DNA of 64,000 bases, taken from assembly GCA_035490055.1 (NCBI GenBank), contig DATHIB010000164.1, positions 29,380 through 93,379 on the forward strand. The letters are read 5' to 3'. Below the pieces are notes generated by a model that had not been told where the DNA came from, searched no databases, and saw nothing but the letters and a program-made list of their open reading frames with translations. Positions 2,920 through 31,409 of the stretch are shown here, one piece after another. This DNA is from Candidatus Limnocylindria bacterium. Lineage in GTDB: Bacteria; Acidobacteriota; Terriglobia; Acidiferrales; UBA7541. The position numbers and the translations under genes are program-made. The first letter of the stretch is position 1. Each line of letters opens with the position of its first letter.

Positions 2920-4281
2920 CTAGTGTCTCGATGTTTTCGCGTTGAGCGGGTGCACTGTCAACTCGCAACTCTCTCCGTCCGCACGATTTTCCGCGCGCGG
3001 CGACTTGCCGGTCAATCCATCCAAGACCTTCGCCAACTGGCCTGTCTGAGCCTCGCGTGTATAGCGCTGGATCTTATCCTTGTCGGGAAGAGGATGAGTG
3101 CCAACTCGCAAAGTATCAACAAATGTGGACAATCCCTCATAAATCTCATCTTCGGATGCGATGTTGACGACCGTGGCTCCGCCGACTTCGCGCAGGAGAG
3201 CCGCGGTGTCACCGGTCTGCGTTGTCAAACCAAGAATGGGCTTGCCAATTCGAAGGTACTCGTAGGCTTTCGCGGGAATCTGCTTATCGCAATCTGCGGC
3301 CTGGAAGAGCAAGAGCCCATCGGCGTCGGCACATTCCTGCAAAGCCTGACGGTAGGGCATGTGGGGTTCAAGAACGATCAGATCCTCGATGTCCCTCTCC
3401 GCGAGGAGCCTGCGGTACAAGTCTTCCGAGCCAGGTGCGCGAAAAACAATTTGAACTTTATCGGCGCTGAGGCGGCCCATCTTTTTCAGGCGACCGACCG
3501 CGCTGAACATAGGTCTTGGGTCACGCTCGACGGGATAGATCAGGCCGGAGTGAACGAGCCGGATGGGACGGCCCACCGGAACAGGACCTGGCGTGGGAAT
3601 ATGCAGGTATCGAAAATCTTCTTCGTCATAACCATTTGAAATGAGGACACACATGTCTGGCGTGAGCAAATCCGGGTAACGCTCGAGGTACATCTGCCGG
3701 GTAGCTTCCGCCGTAAAAATCACGCGGGAGACACGTCGCATGCAGGCGTGCTCAATGGCGCCCCACACGCGGCGGACCAGGAGATCGTGAGGGTAGTCGT
3801 CCTGGCGCATGGGATCGCGAAGATCGAGAACCCAAGGTAAACCGGTCAGGCGCTGCAATCCAAGCCCGATCGCAGCCGCCGACATAATCGGAAAGGTAGA
3901 GTAGAGCACGTCGGTCTTATGAACTCGAACCGCGCGCAATCCAGCAGGGACTCCTCCGAGAATCCAACTGACCCAGCGGTCCGGCAAGGCCATGTACCTG
4001 AGATAGCGGCCCCCGATGCCCATGTGCTTCTTTGTGTCTAACGCGAAAGCGCGAATGACCGGCACATTCCTGGGAATGGAATCCAGGCTCCTCTCGTCGA
4101 TTTTCTCATACGCACGGGCGTGCGGAGTCAGCACCGCGGGCTGCCAGCCGAAGGTGGGCAGGTAGCGGGAATACTTCAGCGATCGCAGTAGACCGCTGCT
4201 GCCTGCTTGGGGCGGAAAGTGGTACGCGATGATTAGAACATTTCCCAAGGGGTCCAATCTCACTATACCCGGCCGGTGCAA
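2920..4281 (-). CDS. Glycosyltransferase family 4 (GT-B)
   Basis: LIIAYHFPP N-terminus, LISNGYDEEDF, IPAKAYEYLRIGKPIL. The true start may be a few codons downstream of 4281. Confidence 0.85.
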   Translation of the reverse strand: MHRPGIVRLDPLGNVLIIAYHFPPQAGSSGLLRSLKYSRYLPTFGWQPAVLTPHARAYEKIDERSLDSIPRNVPVIRAFALDTKKHMGIGGRYLRYMALPDRWVSWILGGVPAGLRAVRVHKTDVLYSTFPIMSAAAIGLGLQRLTGLPWVLDLRDPMRQDDYPHDLLVRRVWGAIEHACMRRVSRVIFTAEATRQMYLERYPDLLTPDMCVLISNGYDEEDFRYLHIPTPGPVPVGRPIRLVHSGLIYPVERDPRPMFSAVGRLKKMGRLSADKVQIVFRAPGSEDLYRRLLAERDIEDLIVLEPHMPYRQALQECADADGLLLFQAADCDKQIPAKAYEYLRIGKPILGLTTQTGDTAALLREVGGATVVNIASEDEIYEGLSTFVDTLRVGTHPLPDKDKIQRYTREAQTGQLAKVLDGLTGKSPRAENRADGESCELTVHPLNAKTSRH

Positions 4282-18421: not shown

Positions 18422-18682
18422 ATGTATCCAAACTTAAAATTACAACTGTTTCGCAGCGCAGTTCGGCAGAACTTCCTGGCTCGCGAGCTGGGGATCGACG
18501 AGAGCATTCTGAGCAAAATCATTCACGGCTATCGCGAGCCCTCGCCAGAACAGCGGCAGAGGCTTTCCGGCTACCTAGGAGTGGAAGAGTCCTGGTTGTT
18601 TGAAAAGTACGAGAATGCCTCGCCGGCGCGCGCGGCGGGCAATCATGGTTCCCCCCACGGAATGAAAGATGACATCACTTAG
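18422..18682 (+). CDS. XRE-family helix-turn-helix protein
   Basis: QNFLARELGIDESILSKIIHGYREP is a classic XRE HTH pattern. Confidence 0.8.
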   Translation: MYPNLKLQLFRSAVRQNFLARELGIDESILSKIIHGYREPSPEQRQRLSGYLGVEESWLFEKYENASPARAAGNHGSPHGMKDDIT

Positions 18683-19763
18683 CGTTCAGGCGGCGAATTT
18701 CCCGATTACCGATCCTCCCGCTTCTCCCGCGCCGGTTGTGGTTCGCGCGTTTGAGAGTCAGGATGCGGAGCGCTGGGATCGCTTCGTTTTAGAGCATCCC
18801 CAGGGGACCTTTTTCCACCAAGTGGCATGGAAGCGGGTTGTCGAAAGAACATTTGATCATCAGGCCCAGTATGTTTTCGGAGAGCGCGATGGTCGAATCG
18901 TTGCGGTTGCACCTGTATTCAAGGTTTCGAATTGGATGGTGGGCCGGTGTCTAGTGTCATCTCCATTGGCTTCGTACGGTGGCATTTGCGCCGAGGACCC
19001 CGAGGCTGAAAAGGCCCTGCTCGAATTCCTCAAACGGCAGGCGCAAGAGCAGCAAGTGGACTATTTAGAATTGCGGAATCCGATCGGCGGGACGCTGCCT
19101 GGATTTGTTCCCAATCCGCGCTATTCCAGTTTTTCGATGGCTCTCTCGAAGGACCCGGAAGCGGTGCTGAAGGGACTTCCCAAAGATATCCGTTACATGA
19201 TTCGCAAGGCTGAAAAGGCGGACCTGCATGTGCATCGCGGCCCGGAACTTCTCGACGAATTCTATAAGCTCTTTACGATTAACATGCGCCGTCTCGGCAC
19301 GCCGGTGTTTCCTCGGGCGCTTTTCGTGAATCTTCTCGAGGAGTTTGGCAAGCAGATCGATGTGCTCGTTGTGTATGCGGGTTCGGAACCCGTGGCAAGT
19401 GCGGTGTCTTTTCTCTTTCGCGACACCATGCACCCGTACTATATCGGGGGCCTGCCGCTGGCGCGCGCGCTGGCCGCCAATAATTTCCTATGGTGGGAGC
19501 TCATGAAGTTTGCGGCCCAATCCGGCATGAACACCTTTGATTTCGGACGCAGTAAGAAAGGCACCGGAGCGTACGCCTTCAAGAAGAAGTGGAATCCCAA
19601 GATCACGGACCTGGACTACCAAGTATTTCTGGTAAAGCGCAAGACCGCTCCAAACTTTTCCCCTGCCAATCCCAAATTTGAAGTTGCGACCCGAGTCTGG
19701 AGCCGCCTGCCGTTGTGGCTGACGAACAGGTTGGGACCGCGAGTCGTACGCTGGATTCCATGA
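18669..19763 (+). CDS. FemAB-related protein (TIGR03019-like)
   Basis: WDRFVLEHPQGTFFHQVAW, LVSSPLASYGG, FDFGRSKKGTGAYAFKKKW. Confidence 0.87.
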   Translation: MTSLSVQAANFPITDPPASPAPVVVRAFESQDAERWDRFVLEHPQGTFFHQVAWKRVVERTFDHQAQYVFGERDGRIVAVAPVFKVSNWMVGRCLVSSPLASYGGICAEDPEAEKALLEFLKRQAQEQQVDYLELRNPIGGTLPGFVPNPRYSSFSMALSKDPEAVLKGLPKDIRYMIRKAEKADLHVHRGPELLDEFYKLFTINMRRLGTPVFPRALFVNLLEEFGKQIDVLVVYAGSEPVASAVSFLFRDTMHPYYIGGLPLARALAANNFLWWELMKFAAQSGMNTFDFGRSKKGTGAYAFKKKWNPKITDLDYQVFLVKRKTAPNFSPANPKFEVATRVWSRLPLWLTNRLGPRVVRWIP

Positions 19764-19831
19764 CCGGAATAGAGCGCCTTTGAATCGCCGGTAACCGGCC
19801 CGCGCGGGATTCCGGTGCGGATTCTCTGAAA

Positions 19832-21067
19832 ATGCAGACCCAACCTGAAATCGAACGCAATCTTACCTCGCATGCCGTCATCACCGGCACGCCTTCCGAG
19901 GATGCCAATCTTTTGCGTATTCTGCATGTCATCAGCTACATGGGCCGCGGTGGCGCAGAGATGGGTATTCTGAAACTTATCGCCGGCCTGGGCGAGGGGT
20001 TCGAACACCGGATCTGTACTACCCGTGGTTTCGATGCAGACTTTGTGCGATCGTCCTTTTCCGAGGAAAAGATGTATGTTGCAGGAAGCTCTGACCTCAA
20101 GTTGCAATTCCCGCTCTTCCGGCTGGCTCGCATCATGCGCCGATACCGCCCACATATCGTGCACGCGCGCAATTGGGGAGCGATCGAGGCCGTGGCGGCG
20201 GCCAAACTGGCCGGCGTTCCTGTGGTCATTCATAGCGAGCACGGATATGAAATCGACATGTTCGCTGGCCTGCCCATCCGCCGCCGTCTCTTTCGTCGCG
20301 CAGCTTACGCCATGACGGATGCAGTTTTCGCTGTCACTCGCGAACTGCGCAATTTTCATGCACGCCAAACGTGGATCCACCCAGAGCGCATCGGCGTGAT
20401 TTACAACGGCGTGGATACCCAGCGTTTTGCACCCCACAGAGAAACGCGGGTCGCGGTGCGCAAAGAATTGGGTTTGTCCGAAGAATCTTTCGTAGTTGGC
20501 GCCGTTGGACGATTGGTGCCGATCAAGGATCAACAGACGCTGCTCAAAGCGGTCGCGCTGCTATCGGGAACCGGGATTGATGTGCGAGTTCTGCTAGTTG
20601 GTTCGGGACCCGAGCGCGAAAAACTCCAGGGCCGGGCCACGGATGCTCTTGAAGGCCGAGTTTGTTTCGCAGGCGATTCCGACCGCGTCCCCGAGATGCT
20701 GAACGCTATGGACGTTTTCGTGCTGCCCTCGCTCGGGGAAGGGATGTCCAATACTTTGCTGGAAGCCATGGCCTGTGGCTTGCCGGTCCTCGCGACAAAT
20801 GTCGGCGGCAATCCAGAAATCATAGAAAACCACGTTAACGGCTGCTTATTTGCACCGGGAGACGCCGAATGGCTTGCAAGCATGCTGAAGCTCCTGGCGC
20901 GGGATCCAGCCCTCATTCACCAGTTGGGCACGGCGGCTAGGAACCGGGCTATCGAGTCGTTCAGCTTGAGCCGCATGCTGGAGACATACCGCAGCTTTTA
21001 TCTTGATCTCACTGCACGCCGGGGGATCGCGGCCGTAAGGACGGATACCGCACATGTGCGGAATTAG
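19832..21067 (+). CDS. Glycosyltransferase family 4 (TIGR03088-like)
   Basis: HSEHG, IYNGVDT, GRLVPIKD, PSLGEGMSNTLLEAMACGLPV. Confidence 0.9.
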   Translation: MQTQPEIERNLTSHAVITGTPSEDANLLRILHVISYMGRGGAEMGILKLIAGLGEGFEHRICTTRGFDADFVRSSFSEEKMYVAGSSDLKLQFPLFRLARIMRRYRPHIVHARNWGAIEAVAAAKLAGVPVVIHSEHGYEIDMFAGLPIRRRLFRRAAYAMTDAVFAVTRELRNFHARQTWIHPERIGVIYNGVDTQRFAPHRETRVAVRKELGLSEESFVVGAVGRLVPIKDQQTLLKAVALLSGTGIDVRVLLVGSGPEREKLQGRATDALEGRVCFAGDSDRVPEMLNAMDVFVLPSLGEGMSNTLLEAMACGLPVLATNVGGNPEIIENHVNGCLFAPGDAEWLASMLKLLARDPALIHQLGTAARNRAIESFSLSRMLETYRSFYLDLTARRGIAAVRTDTAHVRN

Positions 21068-22928
21068 CGGCATCTTCGAATTTGAGCGCCGGGAGCCATT
21101 CCCCCAGGAAGTCGTCCACCGGATGAACGAAACTATCGTTCATCGTGGCCCGGATGACGAGGGCATCTATTGCGGCGAAGGAATTGGCTTCGGATTCCGG
21201 AGGCTCAGCATCATCGATCTGGCGGGAGGCCACCAGCCAATCTCCAACGAGGACGGCCGCTTCTGGGTCATGTTGAACGGGGAGATCTACAACTATTCCG
21301 AACTGCGGCGTGAACTGGAGAGCCGCGGCCACCGCTTTGCCACACGTTCGGATACCGAGACGATCGTTCACCTCTACGAGGAATACGGTGAGGGCTGTTT
21401 TCGAATGCTCCGGGGAATGTTTGCCATTGCCCTCTGGGACTCAAAAGAGAGAAAGCTACTGCTCGCGCGGGACCGCGTGGGCAAAAAACCGCTGTTCTAT
21501 GCGGCGGACTCCAAACGCATCATCTTCGGCTCCGAGTTGAAAGTGTTGCTCGCCGCCGGCGGGATGTCCCGCGAGATCGACCGGGAAGCGCTGTGCGACT
21601 ACTTTTCGTGCGGCTATATTCCGGCGCCCAAGACCATCTATCGCGCTGCCCGCAAAGTTCGACCGGGGCACTATCTGGTGGCTTCGAACGGAAACATTCG
21701 CGAAGTCTGCTATTGGGATCTTTCCTTCGCCGAAGTGGAAAACCGCACCGAGGATGAATGGTGCGAACTACTGCGCCACGAATTGTGCGAAGCGACCCGG
21801 GTGCGCCTGATGAGCGACGTACCGCTCGGCGCTTTCTTGAGCGGCGGCATCGATTCTTCCGCGATCGTCGGCACGATGAGCCGCCTCATGAAGCGGCCCG
21901 TCACAACCTGCTCGATCGGATTTGAAGAAAAAGAATTTGATGAGGCCGGGTACGCCCGGGAAGTTGCGAATCTCTTCCATTCGGAGCATCACGAAGAAAC
22001 GGTGCGGCCCAGCGCGCTGGAGGTCATGGAGAAGTTGGTCTGGCACTTTGACGAACCGTTCGCGGATTCCTCTGCTATTCCCACGTATTACGTCTCCCGG
22101 GTGGCGCGGCGCCACGTGACGGTCGCTCTTGGCGGTGACGGAGGCGACGAGAATCTCGCGGGCTATCGCCGATACATGCTGGACTACTATGAAAACCGCC
22201 TGCGGAGCAACGTGCCGCAATTCGTGAGGTCGGCCGTGTTTGGTCCGCTCGGCCGCTGGTATCCCGCGCTTGCCTGGGCCCCGCGCGTCGTTCGCGGCAA
22301 GGCCACTTTTCAGAGCCTTTCACAAACGCCGTTGGAAGGTTATTTCAATTCGATTTCTTATTTCCGTCCCGACGAAAAGCAGCGGCTGTTCACACCAGAA
22401 TTCCAGAAGAGTCTCGGTGGTTACAACACCATCGAGGTTTTCCGCGAGCATTACAACCGCGCCGACACAGATGACCTCCTCTCGAGAATCCAGTACCTGG
22501 ACATCAAAACGTACCTGACAGACGACATCCTCGCGAAAGTGGACCGCGCCAGCATGGCCGTCTCGCTGGAGGTCCGAGCTCCCCTCCTCGACCATCAGTT
22601 GATGGAAAAAATCTCGCGCATTCCCTCTTCCCTCAAACTGAATGGCCGCTCCGGGAAGTACATTTTCAAGAAAGCCATGTCCTCCATGCTTCCGGACCAA
22701 ATCCTTCACCGCCGCAAGCAGGGCTTCGCCATTCCGCTGGGTCAATGGTTCCGCCAGGAACTCAAGGAAATGACGGAGAAAACGCTTTTCGATTCGAACG
22801 ACGGAATTCTCGATCCTGGTTTCCTCCGGAAGATCTGGAATCAGCATCAGCGCGGACACTATGACCGATCGGCGCACCTTTGGTCGGTCCTGATGTTCCG
22901 TAAATGGAAAGAAACGTTTGCAGTTTAA
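21054..22928 (+). CDS. asnB: AsnB-family amidotransferase, paralogue 2 (TIGR03108-like)
   Basis: MCGI, HRGPD, NGEIYN, LSGGIDSS, GDGGDENLAGY. Confidence 0.92.
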   Translation: MCGISGIFEFERREPFPQEVVHRMNETIVHRGPDDEGIYCGEGIGFGFRRLSIIDLAGGHQPISNEDGRFWVMLNGEIYNYSELRRELESRGHRFATRSDTETIVHLYEEYGEGCFRMLRGMFAIALWDSKERKLLLARDRVGKKPLFYAADSKRIIFGSELKVLLAAGGMSREIDREALCDYFSCGYIPAPKTIYRAARKVRPGHYLVASNGNIREVCYWDLSFAEVENRTEDEWCELLRHELCEATRVRLMSDVPLGAFLSGGIDSSAIVGTMSRLMKRPVTTCSIGFEEKEFDEAGYAREVANLFHSEHHEETVRPSALEVMEKLVWHFDEPFADSSAIPTYYVSRVARRHVTVALGGDGGDENLAGYRRYMLDYYENRLRSNVPQFVRSAVFGPLGRWYPALAWAPRVVRGKATFQSLSQTPLEGYFNSISYFRPDEKQRLFTPEFQKSLGGYNTIEVFREHYNRADTDDLLSRIQYLDIKTYLTDDILAKVDRASMAVSLEVRAPLLDHQLMEKISRIPSSLKLNGRSGKYIFKKAMSSMLPDQILHRRKQGFAIPLGQWFRQELKEMTEKTLFDSNDGILDPGFLRKIWNQHQRGHYDRSAHLWSVLMFRKWKETFAV

Positions 22929-22937
22929 AGGCACCAG

Positions 22938-24827
22938 ATGAGCGGCATTTGCGGAATCTGCGAACCGGGCCGGTCTCTGAGTCCGGCGGGCATCAAAGCG
23001 ATGCTCGCCGCTCTCAGTTTGCCGGACGAGACCGGTCAACTAGCGCCTGGCAAAGATTCCGTGGCGCTGGGTGTATCGCAGCGCTGGCACTTCCAGCAAG
23101 TGGCCAGTATTCCCGGCGTTCGTATCGCTGCAGACGCAGAACTCTTCAATCGCCAGGAACTCACAAAGTCTCTCCAAGGCGGAACTTACGATCCCGCCTG
23201 CCTTACATCCGCTGAATTGCTGGCACGCCTCTATCGAGAGCGCGGAGTTTCCTTCGTCGAACTGCTGGATGGCGTTTTCTCCTTCGCCCTCTGGGATGAA
23301 GTGCACCGCCGTTTAGTGCTGGCGATTGACCGCCTTGGGGTCAACAGTCTGTATTGGCGCAAGGAAGGTGACCGCATCCTTTTTGCTTCGCGGGTGGGAG
23401 CCATTCGCAGTACCCAGGAAGCGCAGGCGACAGTCAATCCGGCCGCACTTGTGCAGTACATGCTTTTCAGTGCCGTCCCTGCTCCAATGGTGATTTATCA
23501 GGGAATCGAGAAGATTCGCCCTGGGTTTTGCCTGGTGTATGAGGCTGGCCAGATTCGCCAGACTCGCTACTGGGATCTCGAATATCGTGAGAGCGACAAT
23601 CGGGACGTTGCCCACTGGGCGCACGAAGTCCGCGAAGGGATGCGCTCCGCAGTCCATCGTCAACTGGCCGATCTCGCTCCGGAAAATACGGGGGCCTACT
23701 TAAGTGGGGGCACGGATAGTAGCAGTGTGGTCGCCTTCATGAATGAGTATCAGTCTCCCGTCAACACCTACTCGATTTTTTTTGCCGAAGCGGTCTACAG
23801 CGAGGTCGGCTTTGCTCGCACCACAGCAAAGCATTTCCGCGCCAACCACCATGAACTTAGCCTGACTTCCCGTGATACGTACGACGCTATTCCGAAGATC
23901 ATGGAGTATTACGACGAGCCCTTCGCGAACTCTTCCGCCATTGGGGCCTACCATTGTGCCCGCATGGCACGCGAATCTGGTGTGACCACATTGCTTGCTG
24001 GAGATGGAGGCGACGAACTCTTCGCCGGCAACGAGCGTTACGCGACCGACAAGCGCTTCGCGCTGTATCAACAAGTGCCAGCCTGGCTCCGCAAGGGAGT
24101 CATCGAACCGATCGCCGCTTTGCTCCCACAAAATGAGAGCCATCTCAGTCTGCCTCGGCGCTACGTCCGGCGAGCCAACATTCCTCTCCCGCGGCGGATT
24201 TTTTCTTACCATCTTCTACTGAGCACTCCGCCGGAGGAAATGTTCGAGCAGGGTTTGCTGGAGAGCGCTCCGCCCGAAACATGGCTTGACGTTGCTGAGG
24301 GGCATTTTCGTTCCGCCGTGGCGGAAAGCGATCTGAACAGGCTGCTTTATCTCGACGTCAAGATGACTTTGGCCGACAATGACCTCCGCAAAGTGCTGGG
24401 CACTGCTGAATTGGCGGGTGTCCGCGCGCGCTTTCCGCTGCTCGATTACACGCTCGCCGAGCTTTCCGGACGCGTCCCCGCGGCGTTGAAGATGCGGGGC
24501 TTTGAAAAGCGCTTCATCTTCAAAGAAGCCATGAGGGAAATCCTGCCGCACAATATCCTTTACAAGAAAAAACACGGTTTTGGTGTGCCTGTCGCGCTAT
24601 GGTTTCTGCAAGATCCCCGACTGGAAACGCTCGTTGCGGACGTTTTGACGGATTCACGCACCCGGCAGCGAGGTTACTTTCGCCCCGCCTTTCTGGACCA
24701 TTTGCTGCGGCTGCACCGCGGCAAGGACGCCCACTTTTACGGCGAGATTCTTTGGTATCTGGTGGCCTTGGAGCTTTGGCATCGTCAGCACTTGGAGCGG
24801 TCTCTGGAGAGTGTTTGTGCGGATTGA
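22938..24827 (+). CDS. AsnB-like ATP-dependent amide ligase with degenerate glutaminase domain, paralogue 3
   Basis: Starts MSGICG (no Cys1). HRGPD is replaced by SLPDE and NGEIYN by DAELFN. The synthetase motifs LSGGTDSS and GDGGDELFAG are intact. Confidence 0.85.
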   Translation: MSGICGICEPGRSLSPAGIKAMLAALSLPDETGQLAPGKDSVALGVSQRWHFQQVASIPGVRIAADAELFNRQELTKSLQGGTYDPACLTSAELLARLYRERGVSFVELLDGVFSFALWDEVHRRLVLAIDRLGVNSLYWRKEGDRILFASRVGAIRSTQEAQATVNPAALVQYMLFSAVPAPMVIYQGIEKIRPGFCLVYEAGQIRQTRYWDLEYRESDNRDVAHWAHEVREGMRSAVHRQLADLAPENTGAYLSGGTDSSSVVAFMNEYQSPVNTYSIFFAEAVYSEVGFARTTAKHFRANHHELSLTSRDTYDAIPKIMEYYDEPFANSSAIGAYHCARMARESGVTTLLAGDGGDELFAGNERYATDKRFALYQQVPAWLRKGVIEPIAALLPQNESHLSLPRRYVRRANIPLPRRIFSYHLLLSTPPEEMFEQGLLESAPPETWLDVAEGHFRSAVAESDLNRLLYLDVKMTLADNDLRKVLGTAELAGVRARFPLLDYTLAELSGRVPAALKMRGFEKRFIFKEAMREILPHNILYKKKHGFGVPVALWFLQDPRLETLVADVLTDSRTRQRGYFRPAFLDHLLRLHRGKDAHFYGEILWYLVALELWHRQHLERSLESVCAD

Positions 24828-26052
24828 GCGCACTTCAACAAGCGGGCTCCCCGCTCTTCGGCCCGAAAGCCAGGGCTGGGTGCACGCTTCGATCCCGCGC
24901 AAGCCGCTGTTCGATTGGCGGGAACTCCTCATCAAGGGCATGCACTACAGTGGAGCCTTGAATCTCGCCCGTCGTCTCTCCAAGTCCCATGAAATTCACC
25001 CGCACTCTTCCCTTCCGTTTCCGCGCTTCGAACGCGTCAAGACTCCCAGATTTGTGATCCTGTGCTACCACGGAATTGGCGAGTCCGGAAATCCGCTCTG
25101 CGCTGCGCTCACCCGCGAACTCTTCGAAACGCAAATGCGTTTCCTGCGCGAGAATTATCGGGTAGTTTCCCTCGATGAAGCGTGTCGTGAATTACGCAGC
25201 GGCGCGAAGCCCGAGCCCGGAGTCGCTATTACCTTTGACGACGGCTATCGCAGCGCCTACACCGTAGCCTTTCCGATTCTGCAAAGGTACCGCCTGCCGG
25301 CCACGGTTTATTTGACTATCGAGCCCGTCGAGACCGGCCAGGTTGCCTGGTATGACCGCGTTTTCCTGGCCATGGCTGTGGCCCCCAGCGGCGAACTCAA
25401 GCTCAACCTCCAGGGCCCCTGGCTTTTCCAGGTGAATTCCCCGGAGGATCGCTTGCGCGCGGCTCTAGAAGTAGTTGCCTTCCTGCGTACACTTCCCAAT
25501 TCACAGCGTCGCGAGTGCTGCGCCTTACTGGAGAATAAGATTGGTCTGCCTCAAAATAAGCTCTCCAGCCGCGTTTTGACATGGGATGAGATTCACACCA
25601 TGCACCAGGCGGGAATTGCCTTTGGCTCGCACACCCTCACCCATCCGGTGGTGAGCCAGTTGGCGCCTCAGGAATTGGAGCAGGAGCTTGGCGCCTCCAA
25701 ACGCCTTCTTGAGAAAATGCTGGGAATTCCCGTCCTGGATTTTGCGTTTCCCTTCGGCAAAGCTTCCGATTGCAGCAGCGCAGCCCTCGATATGCTTGCG
25801 CGCTGCGGATATCGTTCCGCCGCAACCACCGTTCCCGGCGCGAATACTCCCCAGGTCAATCTTTTCGAACTGCGCCGCTTGCAAGTCGGCTTGGATGGCT
25901 CACTCGCCCGTTTTGCCTTCGATCTTGGCCGGGCGTTTCTGTGCGCCGAAGAGCTTCGTGCGTTGAACGTTTCGCCGGCCGGTTCTTACAGTGCTCAAGA
26001 AGTTCCCATCCCGGTCGGCATGGGCGGCGCATTGGGAGACTCCGATGCGTGA
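24811..26052 (+). CDS. Polysaccharide deacetylase (NodB/CE4)
   Basis: ITFDDGY, GSHTLTHP, FAFPFG. Confidence 0.87.
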   Translation: MFVRIERTSTSGLPALRPESQGWVHASIPRKPLFDWRELLIKGMHYSGALNLARRLSKSHEIHPHSSLPFPRFERVKTPRFVILCYHGIGESGNPLCAALTRELFETQMRFLRENYRVVSLDEACRELRSGAKPEPGVAITFDDGYRSAYTVAFPILQRYRLPATVYLTIEPVETGQVAWYDRVFLAMAVAPSGELKLNLQGPWLFQVNSPEDRLRAALEVVAFLRTLPNSQRRECCALLENKIGLPQNKLSSRVLTWDEIHTMHQAGIAFGSHTLTHPVVSQLAPQELEQELGASKRLLEKMLGIPVLDFAFPFGKASDCSSAALDMLARCGYRSAATTVPGANTPQVNLFELRRLQVGLDGSLARFAFDLGRAFLCAEELRALNVSPAGSYSAQEVPIPVGMGGALGDSDA

Positions 26053-27394
26053 CCTGATTCTGTTCATTATCATCGCGATCTCCATCCCGATCAGCTTTTT
26101 TCGGCCCTACTTCGGGATTTTGATCTGGACGTGGATTACATTCTTTAACCCACATCGATACACGTGGGGTTTCATGTATAACTTCCCGGTGGCGGCGGTC
26201 ATTGCCGTGCCCACTCTGATCGGCTGTCTGTTTACTTCCAACATCAACAAGCAGTTTCTGAAGCGGGAAACATTTTTACTGGCTGTCCTGTGGATCTGGT
26301 TTTGCATCACCTTTTTCTATGCGATGCAGGTCCCATTCTTTCAGGGACATATCCTGGACGCGAAGCTGGAGTGGGTGAGAGTCAGCAAAGTCCTGTTAAT
26401 CACATTCACTATGATTTTGTTGGTCACTTCGCACCAGAGATTGAAGTCTCTTGTCATGGTTACGGCATTGAGCTTTGGAGCCCTGGCCGTCAAAGGCGCG
26501 ATCTTCGGAGTTCGTACCGGCGGAGAGGCTCGCGTCTGGGGACCGCCGGATTCTTTCATTGCTGACAACAACTCATTTGCCCTGGCCGTCAATATGTCTC
26601 TTCCGATGCTCTTTTTCCTCGCGCGCGATGAGAAAACGCGCACTTACCGATGGCTTCTGCATTTAGCTTTTGCTTGCGGAGTTCTCTCCGTGGTGCTCAC
26701 TTATTCGCGCGGCGGCCTGCTCGGACTGGCCGCGGTGCTCCTCGCGATCACGTTTAAGTCGCGGTATAAACTTGTTGGCGTTTTTCTGGTGGCCTTATCT
26801 TTTGCCGCCGTGATCACTTTCGCGCCGCCCCAATGGATGAATCGTATGGGAGGGCTTGTCCGCGGCGATGTGGACATGTCCGGTCACCAGCGGCTCGTGT
26901 CTTGGGGAACTTCCTGGAATTTTGCAATGGACTACCCCGTCACCGGCGGTTCCTTCAATGCGCTTCCGGATGTCGAGATTTTCCAGCGTTACCAGAATGA
27001 GCCGTTGCCAGGAGGCTTCCTCTCTTCCGGTCCCCATAGCATTTATTTTCAGATCCTCGAAGAGCAGGGTTTCGTTGGGCTCGCGCTTTATCTCAGTCTC
27101 GTCGCCAGTTGCTGGGCAAGTCTGCTCGGCTTGCGGCGCCGCTCCGGACGTTCGCCTTCTAGCCGGTGGATCGTTCCCTATACCCATATGATCGAAGTCT
27201 CTCTTTTCGGTTTTCTGGTGAGCGGCGCATTTTTGGGTTTAGCCAATTTCGATCTTTTTTATCAGCTCGTCGCCATGGTCATCATTCTCAAAATGCTCTA
27301 TCGCTCCGAGACTCCGGTAGCGGCTCCCGTTCGTGCGGAGGAAACGGAGCCTATCAAAGTAGCGGAGGAATCGTTGATCGCTCGGGAAGCCTGA
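26045..27394 (+). CDS. O-antigen ligase/polymerase-family membrane protein (TIGR03097-like O-glycosylation ligase)
   Basis: Multi-TM, DNNSFAL, TYSRGGLLGL, HSIYFQILEEQGFVGL. Start at ATG 26045 (MRDLILF). Confidence 0.85.
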   Translation: MRDLILFIIIAISIPISFFRPYFGILIWTWITFFNPHRYTWGFMYNFPVAAVIAVPTLIGCLFTSNINKQFLKRETFLLAVLWIWFCITFFYAMQVPFFQGHILDAKLEWVRVSKVLLITFTMILLVTSHQRLKSLVMVTALSFGALAVKGAIFGVRTGGEARVWGPPDSFIADNNSFALAVNMSLPMLFFLARDEKTRTYRWLLHLAFACGVLSVVLTYSRGGLLGLAAVLLAITFKSRYKLVGVFLVALSFAAVITFAPPQWMNRMGGLVRGDVDMSGHQRLVSWGTSWNFAMDYPVTGGSFNALPDVEIFQRYQNEPLPGGFLSSGPHSIYFQILEEQGFVGLALYLSLVASCWASLLGLRRRSGRSPSSRWIVPYTHMIEVSLFGFLVSGAFLGLANFDLFYQLVAMVIILKMLYRSETPVAAPVRAEETEPIKVAEESLIAREA

Positions 27395-27449
27395 TCGAGC
27401 CCGCAGCAGCGGGGCGCGCTCGCAGAATTTCGGGAGGTTCTAAGTCGGG

Positions 27450-28637
27450 ATGTCAGAAATGTTGATTCGAACTCTCAAACTTGTTTCGCGCTCCGTCGCT
27501 CGGGCCGCTGCGCTGCTGTTTTTCTTTTTTCTCGTTTCCGGGAGCACTCGCGCCCAATCCTGGTCCTGGACCTATGATCTGATCGATCTGCCCGCCAAAT
27601 TTCCTTCCCTGGCTGTGGACTCCGGTTCGAATTTGCACATCAGCTACGCGGACAACACTGGCGCCCTCAAGTATGGATTTCGGCCTGCCGGATCGGCTAA
27701 ATGGTTCTTCATGGTGCTCGACAAGCAGCTCGGCGCGTTCACCACGAAGCTGACGCTCGATTCGAGCGACAATCCCCATGTCTGCTACACGCCTGGAATC
27801 ATCAAGTATGCCCATTTTGACGGCAAGCGATGGCAGTCCATTCAGATCGCAAAGGATAGCGGCGAAATCGGATACACCTGCTCGATCGTGATCTCCAAGG
27901 AGGGCGTCCCCCATTTGACTTGGTACCAGCTCTCCGGCCCAACTCCCAACTATCTGCACATCCGCTACGCCGTCTTCAAGGACAACGCGTGGCTGGCCCG
28001 CACTCTGGACTTCGACAATGAAACCGGCAAGTGGAATTCCATGGTCCTCGATGCCCAGAGCAATCCGCTCCTCTCTTACAGTGCCTGGTACGACGGCGAA
28101 CTGCGGCTCGCTCATTGGAATGGCAAGCAATGGGAGTTCAGCACCGTGGACTCTCGCACGCGAAGCCATGGAGAGTTCAACATCGGCGAAGGCAACTCTC
28201 TAATTCTTGATTCCGAGGGAAAACCGCACATTAGTTTTTACAGCGAAAAAGCGCTGAAATATGCCCATCTTGTGGGAGAAAATTGGAAAATCGAAACGGT
28301 AGACCAGTTCACTTGGCTCGGCGGCTGGGCGCATTTCCGGAGTGCCATCGTACTGGACAAGCAGGCACGTCCACACATCTGCTATGACGACGCCGGTCTG
28401 CTGAAGCATGCTTATTGGGACGGCAAGCAATGGCACATTCAGGTGCTCGCGAGAAACGGCATGGAATCGCTCCGCTACGCCACCATGGCCATCGGCCGGG
28501 ACGACACCATCTACATCGCCTTCCGGGATCCGGAGGACAACACATTGAAACTGGCGACCGGCCGGCCAACGCCAGGGCAAGAGGATACGGCGTCCAAGAA
28601 AGAAGAGAAACAGGCAGTGCCTCAGAAACAGGAGTAG
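27450..28637 (+). CDS. Secreted 7-repeat beta-propeller protein
   Basis: Signal peptide, then seven S-[LI]-x-[LI]-D-x3-P-H-I-x-Y...LKYA...W repeats. Confidence 0.7.
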   Translation: MSEMLIRTLKLVSRSVARAAALLFFFFLVSGSTRAQSWSWTYDLIDLPAKFPSLAVDSGSNLHISYADNTGALKYGFRPAGSAKWFFMVLDKQLGAFTTKLTLDSSDNPHVCYTPGIIKYAHFDGKRWQSIQIAKDSGEIGYTCSIVISKEGVPHLTWYQLSGPTPNYLHIRYAVFKDNAWLARTLDFDNETGKWNSMVLDAQSNPLLSYSAWYDGELRLAHWNGKQWEFSTVDSRTRSHGEFNIGEGNSLILDSEGKPHISFYSEKALKYAHLVGENWKIETVDQFTWLGGWAHFRSAIVLDKQARPHICYDDAGLLKHAYWDGKQWHIQVLARNGMESLRYATMAIGRDDTIYIAFRDPEDNTLKLATGRPTPGQEDTASKKEEKQAVPQKQE

Positions 28638-28852
28638 GCGCACCTGAAGAAATCGCTGGAAATGTCAGACCCGATGAACTTATTACTTGGGTGTCCTGCG
28701 AGCCGTTTGGCGCCGGCTCACTTTCGCCGCCTCTCTTCGTTAGGGCCACTTCACGATTCCCGAAGCGGCCGTGGCATTCTCACGCTCTGCAGAGAGGTCT
28801 GCCTCCGGCGAGGAAATCGCCCGAGCTGGCGCCCGAACAAGAGGCTGCACGC

Positions 28853-30031
28853 TTGGAACTAGCGAGAATATTCGAATTCGTCTTTTGGGTCTGTGCGGGA
28901 CTCTTGGCTTATATCTATTTCGGATACCTCGTTCTGCTGACGTTGCTAGCTCGCTTATCGGAGAAAGCTACGCCTTCGGCTGATGTTCCTGAACCTTCGG
29001 TTACTCTTCTCGTTTCCGCATTCAACGAAAGCCAGGTAATTGCCGCCAAGCTGGAGAACGCGCTTGCCCTGGAGTACCCCTCTGATCAGCTTGAGATCCT
29101 GGTGGTCTCAGATGATTCGGATGACGGGACGGATGAAATCGTTCAACAATTTGTTTCTCAATCGAATGTGCGCTTGATCCGCCAGCATCCGCGCATGGGA
29201 AAGACGGCTGGCCTCAATCTTGGAGTTCCTCAGGCAAAGGGTCAAGTCCTCGTCTTTTCGGACGCCAACGCCCTCTACCAATCGGACGCGATTCGGCGTC
29301 TCGTGCGACATTTTTCAAACCCCAAGGTGGGGTATGTCGTGGGGAACGCAAGGTACTGCGAAAAAAACACGGAATCGTCTTCAGCAGAATCCGAGGGGCT
29401 CTATTGGAAACTCGAGACGTATTTAAAGAAAAAGGAATCTCTCTTTGGCTCAGTCGTTGGCGGCGATGGCGCGATTTATGCTATCCGGCGTGAATTGTAC
29501 TCGCCACTCTTGCCCACCGACATCAACGACTTCTTGAACCCGCTTCAGATTATCGCTCGCGGTTACACCGGTGTGTTTGAGCCGGCAGCGGTGTGTTACG
29601 AGGAGGCCGCTGAGAATTTCAGCCAGGAATATCGCCGCAAAGTCCGGATCATCAGCAGGAGCTTGAACGCCCTGCGGCGCATCCCTTCCGTGCTGAATCC
29701 ATTGAACAACACGCGACATTGGTTTCTATTGGTTTCGCACAAACTGCTGCGCTGGTTCGCGCCATTCTTCATGATATTGCTATTTGTTTCGAGTCTCGCG
29801 CTCTTGCAGTTTCCGGTCTATCGGGCCGCTGCGTTGTTGCAAGCCATTTTTTACGGTATGGCGCTGGTAGGCTGGCTGTGGAAGCCGCAGAAGCTCGGAA
29901 AGATTTTCTCCCTGGTCTTTTATTTTTGTATGGTCAATCTTGCGTCGCTGGTCGGCTGTGTGAAGTGTTTTCGAGGCGACCTTTCAAGGCAATGGGCGCC
30001 GCCACGGCAAAAGGTGCAGAATCAAACATAG
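28853..30031 (+). CDS. Membrane glycosyltransferase family 2 (IcaA/PgaC-like)
   Basis: N-terminal TM, VSAFNES, VVSDDSDD, FSDAN, GDGAIYAIRR, RKVRII, C-terminal TMs. TTG start at 28853 preferred over the 28415 extension. Confidence 0.85.
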   Translation: MELARIFEFVFWVCAGLLAYIYFGYLVLLTLLARLSEKATPSADVPEPSVTLLVSAFNESQVIAAKLENALALEYPSDQLEILVVSDDSDDGTDEIVQQFVSQSNVRLIRQHPRMGKTAGLNLGVPQAKGQVLVFSDANALYQSDAIRRLVRHFSNPKVGYVVGNARYCEKNTESSSAESEGLYWKLETYLKKKESLFGSVVGGDGAIYAIRRELYSPLLPTDINDFLNPLQIIARGYTGVFEPAAVCYEEAAENFSQEYRRKVRIISRSLNALRRIPSVLNPLNNTRHWFLLVSHKLLRWFAPFFMILLFVSSLALLQFPVYRAAALLQAIFYGMALVGWLWKPQKLGKIFSLVFYFCMVNLASLVGCVKCFRGDLSRQWAPPRQKVQNQT

Positions 30032-30119
30032 AGTCTGATTGAGTCGGTGAATCGAAAAGTGCATTGGCGCAGTGGGAAAGTCGCAGTGAGGACTCTCCCG
30101 TATTAATCCGCGGAGCTCG

Positions 30120-31409
30120 ATGAATACGGAGACTTTACAAGAGAAAGTACAACAGCAGGCGGTGCGGCCCATCCGTGTGCTACACGTGCTGGACCACTCG
30201 TGGCCTGTGCACACGGGTTATAGCATCCGCAGTCTTCATTTGGTTGCCGCGCAATATCGCCTTGGACTGCGTCCAAGAGTGCTGACTGGTCCCCTCCAAC
30301 TGGTAGACGACCCTGAAGCCGCAGACGCCGTCGTGGAAGACATCTCTTACCGGCGAACCCCGTACAGCGGGAGTTTCTCGGAGTGGGCCATCGCCCATCG
30401 GCTGCCACTCATTCGAGGGGCGGCCGTTGTGCAGCTTATCCGCAACAGGATTCTCGAGTTGCTGGAGAGCGAGCCCGTCGACATCATTCACGCGCATTCG
30501 CCGGCCCTCTGTGGTTTGGGTGCGCTGCTGGCCGCTCGTTCGAAAAACCTCCCCTTCGTTTACGAGTTGCGCGCGTTCTGGGAGGACGCCGCCGTCGATC
30601 AGAATAAAACCACCACCCGTTCTCTCCGCTACCGCCTGAGCCAGAAGCTCGAGGACTACGTTGTGCATCGCGCCGACGCGGTCGTGGGAATTTCGCAATC
30701 GATACTGGACGAACTCAAGAAAAGAAAAACAGATTCTGCAAGACTTTTTCATGTCCCGAATGGGGTCGACGTGGAGAAATTCTCTCCGATTTCCCGCGAC
30801 GAAAGCCTTGCCGCGAAACTCGGGCTCGGCAGCGATCCCGTCCTGGGTTTCATCGGCTCCCTTTACCGTTGGGAAGGGATAGCCTGGCTGGTGCGGGCCG
30901 TCGCGGAGCTTCGCCGTCGCGGAACAGCTTGCAAATTGCTGATTGTCGGCGACGGCGAAGAAATGGCCGCGGTCCGCGAAGCGGTGCGCGAGTTGAATGC
31001 GGAAGACTTTGTTCAAATTTTGGGAAGAGTGCCGCACGATGAAATCGAGCGCTACTATTCTGTGGTCGACGTGCTGGTCTACCCGCGGCACAGCATCCGG
31101 CTGACGGAGCTAGTCACCCCTCTGAAGCCGCTGGAAGCGATGGCGCTCGGGAAGGCCATCCTCGGAAGCGACGTGGGGGGGATGCGCGAACTGGTAAAGT
31201 CTGAGAGGACCGGCATCCTGTATCGTGCTGATAACGTTGAAGATTTTTGCCTGCAGGCCAAAAGGCTCCTGTCGCAGCCTAGTTTGCAACGCAAACTAGG
31301 CGAGGAAGCCCGGGAATTCATTTTGCGCGAAAAAGACTGGAAAGTACTCGCCCAGCGCTACATAGGCATCTACGACTCCGCGATTCGCAATCGCCAATGC
31401 TCAAATTGA
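30120..31409 (+). CDS. Glycosyltransferase family 4 (TIGR04063-like)
   Basis: RVLHVLDHSWPVHTGYSIRS, YELRAFWEDAAVD, TPLKPLEAMALGK. Confidence 0.9.
   Translation: MNTETLQEKVQQQAVRPIRVLHVLDHSWPVHTGYSIRSLHLVAAQYRLGLRPRVLTGPLQLVDDPEAADAVVEDISYRRTPYSGSFSEWAIAHRLPLIRGAAVVQLIRNRILELLESEPVDIIHAHSPALCGLGALLAARSKNLPFVYELRAFWEDAAVDQNKTTTRSLRYRLSQKLEDYVVHRADAVVGISQSILDELKKRKTDSARLFHVPNGVDVEKFSPISRDESLAAKLGLGSDPVLGFIGSLYRWEGIAWLVRAVAELRRRGTACKLLIVGDGEEMAAVREAVRELNAEDFVQILGRVPHDEIERYYSVVDVLVYPRHSIRLTELVTPLKPLEAMALGKAILGSDVGGMRELVKSERTGILYRADNVEDFCLQAKRLLSQPSLQRKLGEEAREFILREKDWKVLAQRYIGIYDSAIRNRQCSN

Follow-up and report, generated by a model that had tools for sequence, protein, structure and literature searches.

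AsnB-family genes of the locus

The window, a stretch of 64,000 nucleotides from a soil acidobacterium, holds three AsnB-family paralogues. Two of them lie in tandem on the + strand of a locus annotated as an XrtA-type exopolysaccharide (EPS) locus, the gene for XrtA itself lying elsewhere in the genome, on a separate contig. The upstream member of the pair, AsnB2 (21054–22928, 624 aa), is by its TIGR03108 score and its motifs an intact XrtA/PEP-CTERM amidotransferase of the WbpS/WbqG type. After a gap of 9 nt follows AsnB3 (22938–24827, + strand, 629 aa), an AsnB-family protein without the N-terminal cysteine, characterised here from its ORF, profile matches, alignment and AF2 model. The third paralogue, AsnB1 (960–2912, − strand), is Cys-bearing and lies at the end of the ACP/decarboxylase operon.

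The first large gene of the operon that carries AsnB2 and AsnB3 encodes a FemAB-family XrtA-associated protein (TIGR03019; 18669–19763, + strand). It is followed by a GT4 glycosyltransferase related to TIGR03088 (stp2; 19832–21067, + strand), which overlaps the start of AsnB2 by 14 nt. Downstream of AsnB3 lie, both on the + strand, a homologue of the CE4 polysaccharide deacetylases with TFDDG and HTLTH motifs and no signal peptide (24811–26052), and a Wzy_C/O-antigen-ligase-like protein associated with the exosortase A system (TIGR03097; 25991–27394), which belongs to the conserved synteny described below. All neighbours of AsnB3 that match a family are glycan enzymes; orf395 matches none. No prominent promoter- or terminator-like sites were seen across 18669–31409. 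The locus as a whole encodes two deacetylases besides its aminoacyl transferase of the FemAB type.

The TIGR03108 family is that of the WbpS/WbqG enzymes, which form uronamides (PMC7468200), examples being WbpS of P. aeruginosa and of P. gingivalis and WbqG of E. coli O121. AsnB2 scores 824 bits against this model (cut-off 816.9), AsnB1 scores 587 bits, and both carry the MCGI, HRGPD, RRLSIID, LNGEIYN and S/TDTE motifs, in agreement with the first-pass annotation, which had called these two paralogues intact. That annotation had also proposed that both make primary amides. For AsnB2, which would make an ordinary primary uronamide, the TIGR03108 match renders the proposal reasonable, but it does not carry over to AsnB1, whose score lies below the cut-off. 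AsnB3 reaches 330.8 bits, with a match that starts only at residue 61. It shares with AsnB2 the two-domain architecture, the length, the kind of locus, 33% sequence identity, the DEPFA[DN]SS and GDGGDE motifs and a helical insertion of ~100 residues that is absent from E. coli AsnB; however, it differs from the TIGR03108 enzymes in its sub-cut-off score, in lacking Cys1 and the glutamine pocket, and in falling on the opposite side of a branch with 100% support.

The JGI name of AsnB3, glutamine-hydrolysing asparagine synthase (TIGR01536, EC 6.3.5.4), is wrong. AsnB3 only just exceeds the TIGR01536 cut-off (268.6 against 267.1 bits), which explains the misleading automatic name, and it lacks the Cys1 and the glutamine pocket and oxyanion residues by which EC 6.3.5.4 is recognised. 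Nor is it an asparagine synthetase, because the aspartate-site residues Thr322, Thr323 and Arg325 of E. coli AsnB are replaced by Pro328, Phe329 and Asn331 (a numbering that may be off by one).

Loss of the glutamine site and retention of the ATP site

Residues of AsnB3 were assigned by alignment to E. coli AsnB (1CT9). At the N-terminus, MSGICGIC (22938–22961, + strand), Ser2 replaces Cys1, the Ntn nucleophile; Asn74-Gly75 has become Asp66-Ala67, Asp98 has become Ser91, LPDET stands in place of HRGPD, and the glutamine-binding loop carries a 6-residue deletion. The equivalent of Arg49 is ambiguous, reading QRW here and RRW in most orthologues. The ex-glutaminase (Ntn) domain (residues 1–200; 22938–23537, + strand) has lost its glutamine pocket and kept its fold and length, and, judged by these residues, AsnB3 is glutaminase-dead. 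An in-frame TAA four codons 5' of the ATG makes an N-terminal extension or propeptide impossible. An alternative start at Ile4 (ATT), which would give M-C-G-I-C, was rejected because the M1/G3/I4/G6/I7 register already fits AsnB and because Cys5 is Tyr or His in the Acidobacteriaceae orthologues, the rest of the glutamine pocket being lost as well.

The cysteine is missing far beyond this genome. Among 104 full-length relatives at >=60% identity none has Cys at position 2 (103 have Ser and one has Asn), whereas the PP-loop is kept in 103 of them. Across 31 genomes position 2 is S, D, H or Q and never C, the D, H and Q being found in the Acidobacteriaceae orthologues. Similarly, C2, HRGPD, R50, Q61-P62, N75, E77, D100 and other residues conserved at >=90% in 41 Cys-bearing sequences fall below 50% in 48 Cys-less ones. 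The first-pass annotation had named the retention of Cys1 by orthologues as a finding that would refute its reading, and no orthologue retains it; on these counts the loss is neither chance nor local decay. Ser2 was also considered as a stand-in Ntn nucleophile and rejected, since Asp, His, Gln and Asn occur at the same position. The alignment revealed no new clade-wide motif in the ex-glutaminase domain of the Cys-less set, and the idea of an N-domain repurposed to bind an amine finds no support there.

The synthetase half is a different matter. The PP-loop SGGTDSS (residues 256–262; 23703–23723, + strand), GDGGDELF (residues 355–362; 24000–24023, + strand), which aligns with S346-GEGSDEV of AsnB, and Lys545 (24570–24572, + strand), which aligns with Lys449, the catalytic lysine of E. 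coli AsnB, and is invariant in 89 of the 89 sequences compared, are all in place. Indeed, neither the Cys-less nor the Cys-bearing set shows any variation in SGGxDSS, E289, DEP, GxGGDE, K485 (aligned with R387 of AsnB) and K545. AsnB3 matches Pfam Asn_synthase (PF00733) with 267 bits, and its AF2 model (pLDDT 91) has the two-domain AsnB fold, matches 7YLZ, 1CT9 and 1JGT, and fits AsnB, TsnB9, beta-lactam synthetase (BLS) and CarA. AsnB3 is therefore a member of the AsnB superfamily with a PP-loop ATP pyrophosphatase synthetase domain. The alignment thus bears out what the first-pass annotation had read from the letters, namely a paralogue without Cys1, HRGPD and NG in which the PP-loop and GDGGDELF survive.

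At six positions of the synthetase domain the two sets have different fixed residues (Cys-less/Cys-bearing: N331/D, C340/V, N365/Y, G494/S, R525/K and K543/R), and nine more residues, including F374, Y377, Y409 and R420, are fixed in the Cys-less set only. Several clade-specific residues map to the segment aligned with AsnB 386–401, which we take to be the lining of the ammonia tunnel and the acceptor site. Together, the six switched and nine gained residues point to a different site for the substrate or the nucleophile.

Clade structure, gene order and selection

In the tree, whose sequences were picked by similarity to AsnB3, a branch with SH-aLRT 100 sets the Cys-less proteins apart, so that a single change of state suffices. 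This clade spans two phyla and includes genes of proteobacterial XrtA loci, where they lie beside CE4 and TIGR03097 genes. The nearest 150 clusters (50% identity, from 1.84 billion proteins) are almost all Cys-less: among the full-length ones, Cys2 occurs in 3 of 140 and the PP-loop in 140 of 140. The possibility that AsnB3 is a recent degenerate duplicate of AsnB2 was rejected, because the proteins most similar to it lack the cysteine and come from other phyla, and because a long branch with 100% support sets off the clade.

The order stp2-type glycosyltransferase, AsnB2, AsnB3, CE4 and O-antigen-ligase-like gene is fixed in 31 Terriglobia genomes. True orthologues are rare in the Acidobacteriota, with 2 genomes in an even sample of 301. 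[quoted passage not shown] The cassette is predicted to yield an acyl donor rather than a free amine. Janthinobacterium, a genus related to the floc-forming Zoogloea and Aquincola and the only such genus checked, carries a single TIGR03108 gene together with one or more Cys-less genes. An obligate AsnB2–AsnB3 pairing has no support outside the Terriglobia, since the Cys-less gene of Proteobacteria lies 7–90 kb from the true TIGR03108 gene or, in one draft genome, on a separate contig.

These distances bear on the first alternative to be weighed, that AsnB3 is an ammonia-dependent amidotransferase: it would adenylate either a second carboxylate or, when conditions differ, the same one, and would make another primary amide from free NH3 or, less probably, from NH3 released by AsnB2. 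This is possible but doubtful. The synthetase site is intact, the Terriglobia gene stands in tandem with an intact glutaminase paralogue in one operon, and AsnB-family synthetase domains accept NH3 once Cys1 is removed: the C1A and C1S mutants of E. coli AsnB retain ammonia-dependent activity. Because they do, the loss of the cysteine does not by itself imply an organic amine. However, the ammonia tunnel of AsnB is intramolecular, the proteobacterial genes dispense with the pairing, and the fifteen switched or gained residues of the synthetase domain are more than a switch of nitrogen source alone would call for.

Selection has treated the two halves of AsnB3 differently. With dS values of 1–1.8, and therefore near saturation, the dN/dS of the synthetase domain is 0.04–0.06, the same as in AsnB2 (about 0.05 in both), whereas that of the ex-glutaminase domain is about 0.13, against 0.02 in AsnB2. 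The ex-glutaminase domain also diverges 2.1x as fast as its AsnB2 counterpart; it is relaxed yet still constrained. A purely non-catalytic role for AsnB3, as a pseudoenzyme that scaffolds or regulates AsnB2 or the glycosyltransferase/ligase complex, is very improbable. The dead glutaminase site and the faster overall evolution of AsnB3 relative to AsnB2 would suit such a role, but a scaffold needs neither SGGxDSS nor GxGGDE nor both lysines, and the residues for ATP binding and catalysis do not vary across a two-phylum clade, in a domain whose dN/dS matches that of an active paralogue. The same two observations support the first-pass description of AsnB3 as synthetase-intact.

Candidate reactions and significance

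Because the ATP-site and catalytic residues are invariant and the synthetase-domain dN/dS equals that of AsnB2, an active enzyme with a nitrogen of non-glutamine origin is the most economical explanation. We hold with about even confidence that AsnB3 is a working glutamine-independent enzyme that adenylates a glycan intermediate and forms an amide on it. Our proposal, which is drawn from sequence conservation, the tree, gene order and selection, is that an old AsnB-family clade lost the whole glutamine-hydrolysing site once, retained the PP-loop adenylation site, and would since have travelled with XrtA/PEP-CTERM-type EPS loci of Acidobacteriota and Pseudomonadota. AsnB3 would bind ATP and adenylate a carboxylate of a glycan precursor in the cytoplasm, the most plausible candidate being the uronic acid of a sugar linked to a nucleotide or a lipid. 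The acyl-AMP would then be attacked by a nucleophile whose nitrogen does not come from glutamine. By comparison with PdmN, an amino acid, an amine or an amino sugar freed of its N-acetyl group would probably serve as this nucleophile. The ex-glutaminase domain may stay as a structural domain, as it does in beta-lactam synthetase and carbapenam synthetase.

The amine-ligase idea has a real precedent in a published correlation among AsnB homologues, in which an N-terminal Ser goes with amino-acid ligation (PdmN) and an N-terminal Cys with amidotransfer (FdmV). PdmN, of the pradimicin pathway, is an AsnB homologue that ligates D-Ala or D-Ser to a carboxylate, and AsnB3 resembles PdmN as there described, with Ser instead of Cys at the N-terminus and a synthetase domain that is intact. 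By this analogy AsnB3, like PdmN, probably belongs to the ligase type. PdmN differs in acting on an aromatic polyketide in actinomycetes. Moreover, Ser2 is not strictly conserved among the AsnB3 orthologues, and because it varies (D, H, Q) in the wider set, the correlation with an N-terminal Ser may be incidental. E. coli AsnB and human ASNS (1CT9, 6GQ3) share with AsnB3 the fold, the PP-loop, GxGxDE and the catalytic Lys; AsnB3 differs from them in lacking the glutaminase site and in its replaced aspartate-site residues.

Beta-lactam synthetase (1JGT, 1MB9) and CarA (1Q15) offer a second comparison. They have the AsnB fold with a structural N-domain that lacks the N-terminal nucleophile, they form an amide by acyl-adenylation with an amine borne by the substrate, and the AsnB3 model matches them with Foldseek E-values of 1e-19 to 1e-21. 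In contrast to AsnB3, with which they share 15–18% identity, they are about 110–130 residues shorter, and they close a beta-lactam ring intramolecularly on small molecules. BLS and CarA possess a catalytic Tyr-Glu dyad. That the AsnB3 fold is as close to these enzymes as to AsnB raises the alternative that AsnB3 is, like them or the lasso-peptide cyclases, an intramolecular cyclase, or else a peptide/protein enzyme, forming a lactam either inside a substituent of a sugar or on a protein or peptide of the PEP-CTERM type. The locus is part of a protein-sorting (exosortase) system, and the FemAB-type transferase and the deacetylases could place an amine near a carboxylate. We nevertheless regard this alternative as rather improbable. 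AsnB3 matches part of NF033535, the lasso cyclase model, at 159 bits, far under the cut-off of 525, no precursor-peptide gene was seen adjoining AsnB3, and the family-matched immediate neighbours act on glycans. In addition, exosortase substrates are processed outside the cytoplasm, and AsnB3 has no signal peptide.

Returning to an enzyme that acts between glycan and amine, it is tempting to speculate further, although we consider this unlikely as it stands, that the Cys-less clade is an unrecognised class of glycan amide ligases, regular in XrtA/PEP-CTERM loci, which joins the uronate of the EPS to an amine made by the locus. The amine might be the amino group that the cytoplasmic CE4 deacetylase next door exposes, or it might be an amino acid that the FemAB-type transferase puts in place. 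The products could be amino-acid or amino-sugar uronamides, or amide cross-links from chain to chain that would give flocs and slime their cohesion, and such a product might serve as the acceptor for exosortase-attached PEP-CTERM proteins. Our literature searches turned up no Cys-less AsnB that has been characterised from a polysaccharide or PEP-CTERM locus, and Haft's 2006 paper does not mention the AsnB-like family. The floc-formation EPS cluster of Zoogloea/Aquincola, an XrtA/PEP-CTERM cluster of the same kind as the AsnB3 locus, is cited in later papers as having two asparagine synthetase genes, asnB and asnH, both reported to be required for flocs; one of the two may be of the Cys-less type.

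XrtA/PEP-CTERM loci are widespread among soil, sludge and sediment bacteria, and to our knowledge neither the chemistry of their polymers nor the mode of protein attachment has been established. What is new here is a coherent, cross-phylum clade of AsnB-like enzymes, glutamine-independent as judged by their residues, that is tied to these loci and is systematically mislabelled as asparagine synthase (glutamine-hydrolysing). AsnB3 belongs to this old and widespread Cys-less branch, which probably forms an amide bond of another kind on the polymer. With the clade defined, there is a candidate for an amide-forming step as yet unassigned, a set of residues that can guide annotation, and carriers in culture, among them Methyloversatilis universalis FAM5. 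If these enzymes do ligate organic amines to uronates, chemistry of the PdmN and BLS type would extend from natural products to polysaccharides.

Residues of the two halves of AsnB3

AsnB3 (22938-24827, + strand; 629 aa) follows AsnB2 (21054-22928, +) so closely that its ATG begins 9 nt past the AsnB2 stop. AsnB2 is intact, with the N-terminus MCGISGIF and the HRGPD, RRLSIID, LNGEIYN and SDTE motifs, and it scores 824 bits against TIGR03108 (cut-off 816.9). The third paralogue, AsnB1 (960-2912, -), also has the nucleophile Cys and an intact pocket; its TIGR03108 score of 587 bits is under the cut-off. In alignments to E. coli AsnB and to its paralogues in the window, AsnB3 has Ser2 at the position of AsnB Cys1, Asp66-Ala67 in place of Asn74-Gly75, Ser91 at the Asp98 position, LPDET where the paralogues have HRGPD, and six residues fewer in the glutamine-closing loop. 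An Arg near the AsnB Arg49 position may persist, as RRW in most orthologues. The synthetase half retains SGGTDSS (256-262, the PP-loop), GDGGDELF (355-362), K485 (aligned to AsnB R387) and K545 (aligned to AsnB K449). An N-terminal extension is ruled out by an in-frame TAA four codons 5' of the start. Thus, the first-pass annotation, which described AsnB3 as lacking Cys1, HRGPD and the NG motif while keeping the PP-loop and GDGGDELF, beside two intact paralogues, was correct in all points.

AsnB3 belongs to the AsnB synthetase superfamily. Its AlphaFold model is confident (pLDDT 91, pTM 0.91), and the structures it resembles most are TsnB9, AsnB, beta-lactam synthetase, human ASNS and CarA. 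We reject a glutamine-hydrolysing asparagine synthase, from which AsnB3 departs in its nucleophile, its pocket and its aspartate-site residues, and likewise membership of TIGR03108 (331 vs 816.9 bits) and of the lasso cyclases (159 vs 525 bits). AsnB3 passes the model for 'asparagine synthase (glutamine-hydrolyzing)', TIGR01536, at 268.6 bits (cut-off 267.1), and dozens of its relatives carry a name of this type at JGI; for a clade that has no glutaminase nucleophile, this name is systematically wrong.

Conservation of the tandem genes

Queried with AsnB3, a word index of 5.8 billion proteins gave over 100 clusters at 60-99% identity, almost all exactly 629 aa long. Conservation of the Cys1 loss, a check proposed in the first-pass annotation, was borne out: residue 2 is Ser in 103 of 104 full-length relatives, Asn in one and Cys in none, while the PP-loop is kept in 103/104 and GDGGDE in all 104. 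A species-representative genome collection holds the gene at 32 loci, the relatives bearing the names Candidatus Acidoferrum, Terriglobales and Acidobacteriaceae, and the order stp2-GT, AsnB2, AsnB3, CE4, O-ligase-like, orf395 is identical in all 31 with upstream flank. The orthologues there vary at position 2 (S, D, H or Q) and at position 5 (C, Y or H), so there is no conserved N-terminal nucleophile. Every one of the 32 loci has an Acidobacteriota label but for one, from a MAG labelled Dongiaceae (L023, DATJZF010000015.1). This contig carries the complete acidobacterial locus in unchanged order; its AsnB2 and AsnB3 each nest within acidobacterial clades, beside the loci L005 and L009. Mis-binning is the probable cause; otherwise the locus would have been transferred recently.

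The two halves of AsnB3 have diverged differently. Across 14 genomes with both genes comparable, the N-domain diverges at 2.1 times the AsnB2 rate and the synthetase domain at just 1.3 times. Nei-Gojobori dN/dS from three close pairs, approximate because dS (0.75-2.4) is partly saturated, is 0.04-0.06 for the AsnB3 synthetase domain against 0.04-0.05 in AsnB2, and 0.13 for the N-domain against 0.01-0.02. These values indicate that the ATP-using half is constrained like that of an active enzyme, and that the former glutaminase half is relaxed, yet far off neutral. A pseudoenzyme would be compatible with the dead glutaminase site and the faster overall divergence; given such constraint on the synthetase half, we regard it as very improbable. 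The most economical reading of the sequences is that AsnB3 is an active, glutamine-independent acyl-adenylating enzyme.

In an even sample of 301 Acidobacteriota, a true orthologue is present in two, in tandem in both; the tandem module is therefore lineage-restricted, whereas the Cys-less clade is broad. When 1.84 billion cluster representatives were searched exhaustively with HMMER, the closest 150 clusters proved to be nearly all Cys-less, usually with MSG[IL]CGW, MTGICGW or similar N-termini; Cys2 occurs in just 3 of 140 full-length members, and the PP-loop and GxGGDE in all 140. Searching with an alignment of Cys-less proteins recovered genes in Methyloversatilis, Thauera, Janthinobacterium, Ectothiorhodospira, Methylomonas, Sideroxydans and others, which share their EPS loci with TIGR03097, CE4 and stp3-related GT4 genes, a homologue of the CE4 gene often immediately adjoining. 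A true TIGR03108 gene (>1000 bits) is present in seven of eight such genomes, and in six it is on the same contig, 7-90 kb off and non-adjacent. Methyloversatilis universalis FAM5 has a second, more reduced AsnB-like gene (L061:5034-6695, 553 aa) two genes upstream of its Cys-less gene. Its TIGR03108 match is limited to model positions 120-402, meaning that most of the glutaminase domain is absent; proteobacterial XrtA loci can thus hold several Cys-less paralogues.

In a maximum-likelihood tree of 89 sequences (48 Cys-less, 41 Cys-bearing), a branch with an SH-aLRT support of 100 separates all 48 Cys-less proteins from the others; a single change of state is therefore enough. AsnB2 orthologues nest amid Cys-bearing TIGR03108-like proteins, and the AsnB2 and AsnB3 subtrees are alike in shape, as for a pair inherited jointly within Terriglobia. 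Compared column by column, about 40 positions invariant in the Cys-bearing set are free in the Cys-less set; the N-domain holds nearly all of these positions, and every known Gln-site residue is among them. No new motif common to the 48 Cys-less N-domains was found. The adenylation machinery is invariant across both sets. Six synthetase-domain positions are fixed for different residues (N331/D338, C340/V347, N365/Y371, G494/S504, R525/K535, K543/R553), and nine are fixed in the Cys-less clade only (F374, Y377, Y409, P418, R420, A493, G549, R578, E612). N331 aligns to the AsnB Thr322-Arg325 segment, and G494 and its neighbours to AsnB 386-401, in the segment bearing Asp384 and Arg387. From AsnB and ASNS structures, we take 386-401 to line the ammonia-tunnel exit too. 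The invariant adenylation machinery would also serve ammonia-dependent amidation by AsnB3; with residues in this segment fixed differently in the Cys-less clade, we consider such a reaction rather unlikely.

The exopolysaccharide locus

AsnB3 lies in a run of closely packed genes (18669-31409, +) within which no prominent promoter- or terminator-like sites were found. NCBIfam matches place the region in an XrtA/PEP-CTERM exopolysaccharide system, with a priming transferase (TIGR03013), exporter, chain-length determinant, ATPase, tyrosine kinase, FemAB-type protein (TIGR03019), O-ligase-like protein (TIGR03097), stp3-related GT4 and XrtA deacetylase (TIGR03006). The stp2-related GT4 gene overlaps the AsnB2 start by 14 nt, and AsnB3, 9 nt behind AsnB2, runs 17 nt into the annotated CE4 gene; these overlapping or near-abutting ends suggest that the GT/AsnB2/AsnB3/CE4 block is translationally coupled. 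The CE4 homologue (24811-26052, +) lacks a signal peptide, and its TFDDG and HTLTH motifs are intact. Its true start is probably 3' of the GTG at 24811, since matches to orthologues begin 30-120 nt past the AsnB3 stop, and some 80 inserted residues split its 124-position Pfam domain, which spans residues 132-335. Directly behind the O-ligase-like gene, in the window as in 31/31 related loci, orf395 (27450-28637) encodes 395 aa; its N-terminus (…AAALLFFFFLVSGSTRAQ) resembles a signal peptide, and blocks of about 45 residues, each ending Y-A/H, recur in the protein. It matched nothing in Pfam or NCBIfam.

Upstream, on the opposite strand, is an exosortase-associated AMP-ligase (TIGR03098) and PLP-decarboxylase (TIGR03099) cassette, which accompanies AsnB3 in 30 of the 32 genomes. 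As the two belong to a single super-locus, this co-occurrence says little about the suggestion in the first-pass annotation that the decarboxylase cassette may supply the amine. AsnB1 is the last gene of this ACP/AMP-ligase/decarboxylase operon; in the tree, its product lies nearest to a proteobacterial protein (L105). Directly before AsnB1, a 453-aa protein (2920-4281, -) has a weak GT4 N-terminal-domain match only, and no NCBIfam family. The XrtA gene is on a separate contig of the same 5.9-Mb genome (G000 contig C208:29401-30174), inside a 555-aa open frame. As the XrtA model (261 positions) covers only part of this frame, a C-terminal fusion is likely; the extra part is perhaps, we presume, an EpsI-like domain.

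Candidate chemistry of AsnB3

In a published correlation among AsnB homologues, Ser or Ala at the N-terminus goes with ligation of an amino acid to a carboxylate (PdmN and relatives), and Cys with transfer of glutamine nitrogen (FdmV) (bioRxiv 10.1101/2025.10.30.685158). In beta-lactam and carbapenam synthetases, the dead N-domain persists as structure, a precedent for AsnB3. On this correlation and precedent, we favour AsnB3 as an amide ligase that would join a cytoplasmic glycan precursor to an organic amine, and give this reading about an even chance. The coupling of an amine, proposed in the first-pass annotation, is thus a reasonable interpretation with precedent. The recurrent CE4 neighbourhood suggests a free sugar amine, from the predicted cytoplasmic CE4 homologue, as one candidate nucleophile. 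A cyclase or peptide-directed enzyme would be in keeping with the structural match to beta-lactam synthetase; in the setting of an exopolysaccharide locus, it appears improbable.

For AsnB2, the literature offers a solid anchor: WbpS and WbqG, both of TIGR03108, turn uronic acids into uronamides, and XrtA loci unite a FemAB/VimA-like transferase, a deacetylase and a TIGR03108 amidotransferase, like the Wbp/Vim pathway, through which type IX secretion cargo gets its linking sugar with an attached amino acid (PMC7468200). As cited in other papers, floc-formation studies in Zoogloea and Aquincola describe two asparagine synthetase genes, asnB and asnH, in the conserved XrtA cluster, each reported as required for floc formation. 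By analogy with gene content in Janthinobacterium, the one related genus checked, one of this pair is likely of the Cys-less type.

Judged by its residues, AsnB3 fits the operational definition of 'ligase-type' AsnB homologues. Its kind, AsnB-fold amide-forming enzymes without glutaminase, is already known; none of those studied before is known to come from a polysaccharide setting such as that of AsnB3.
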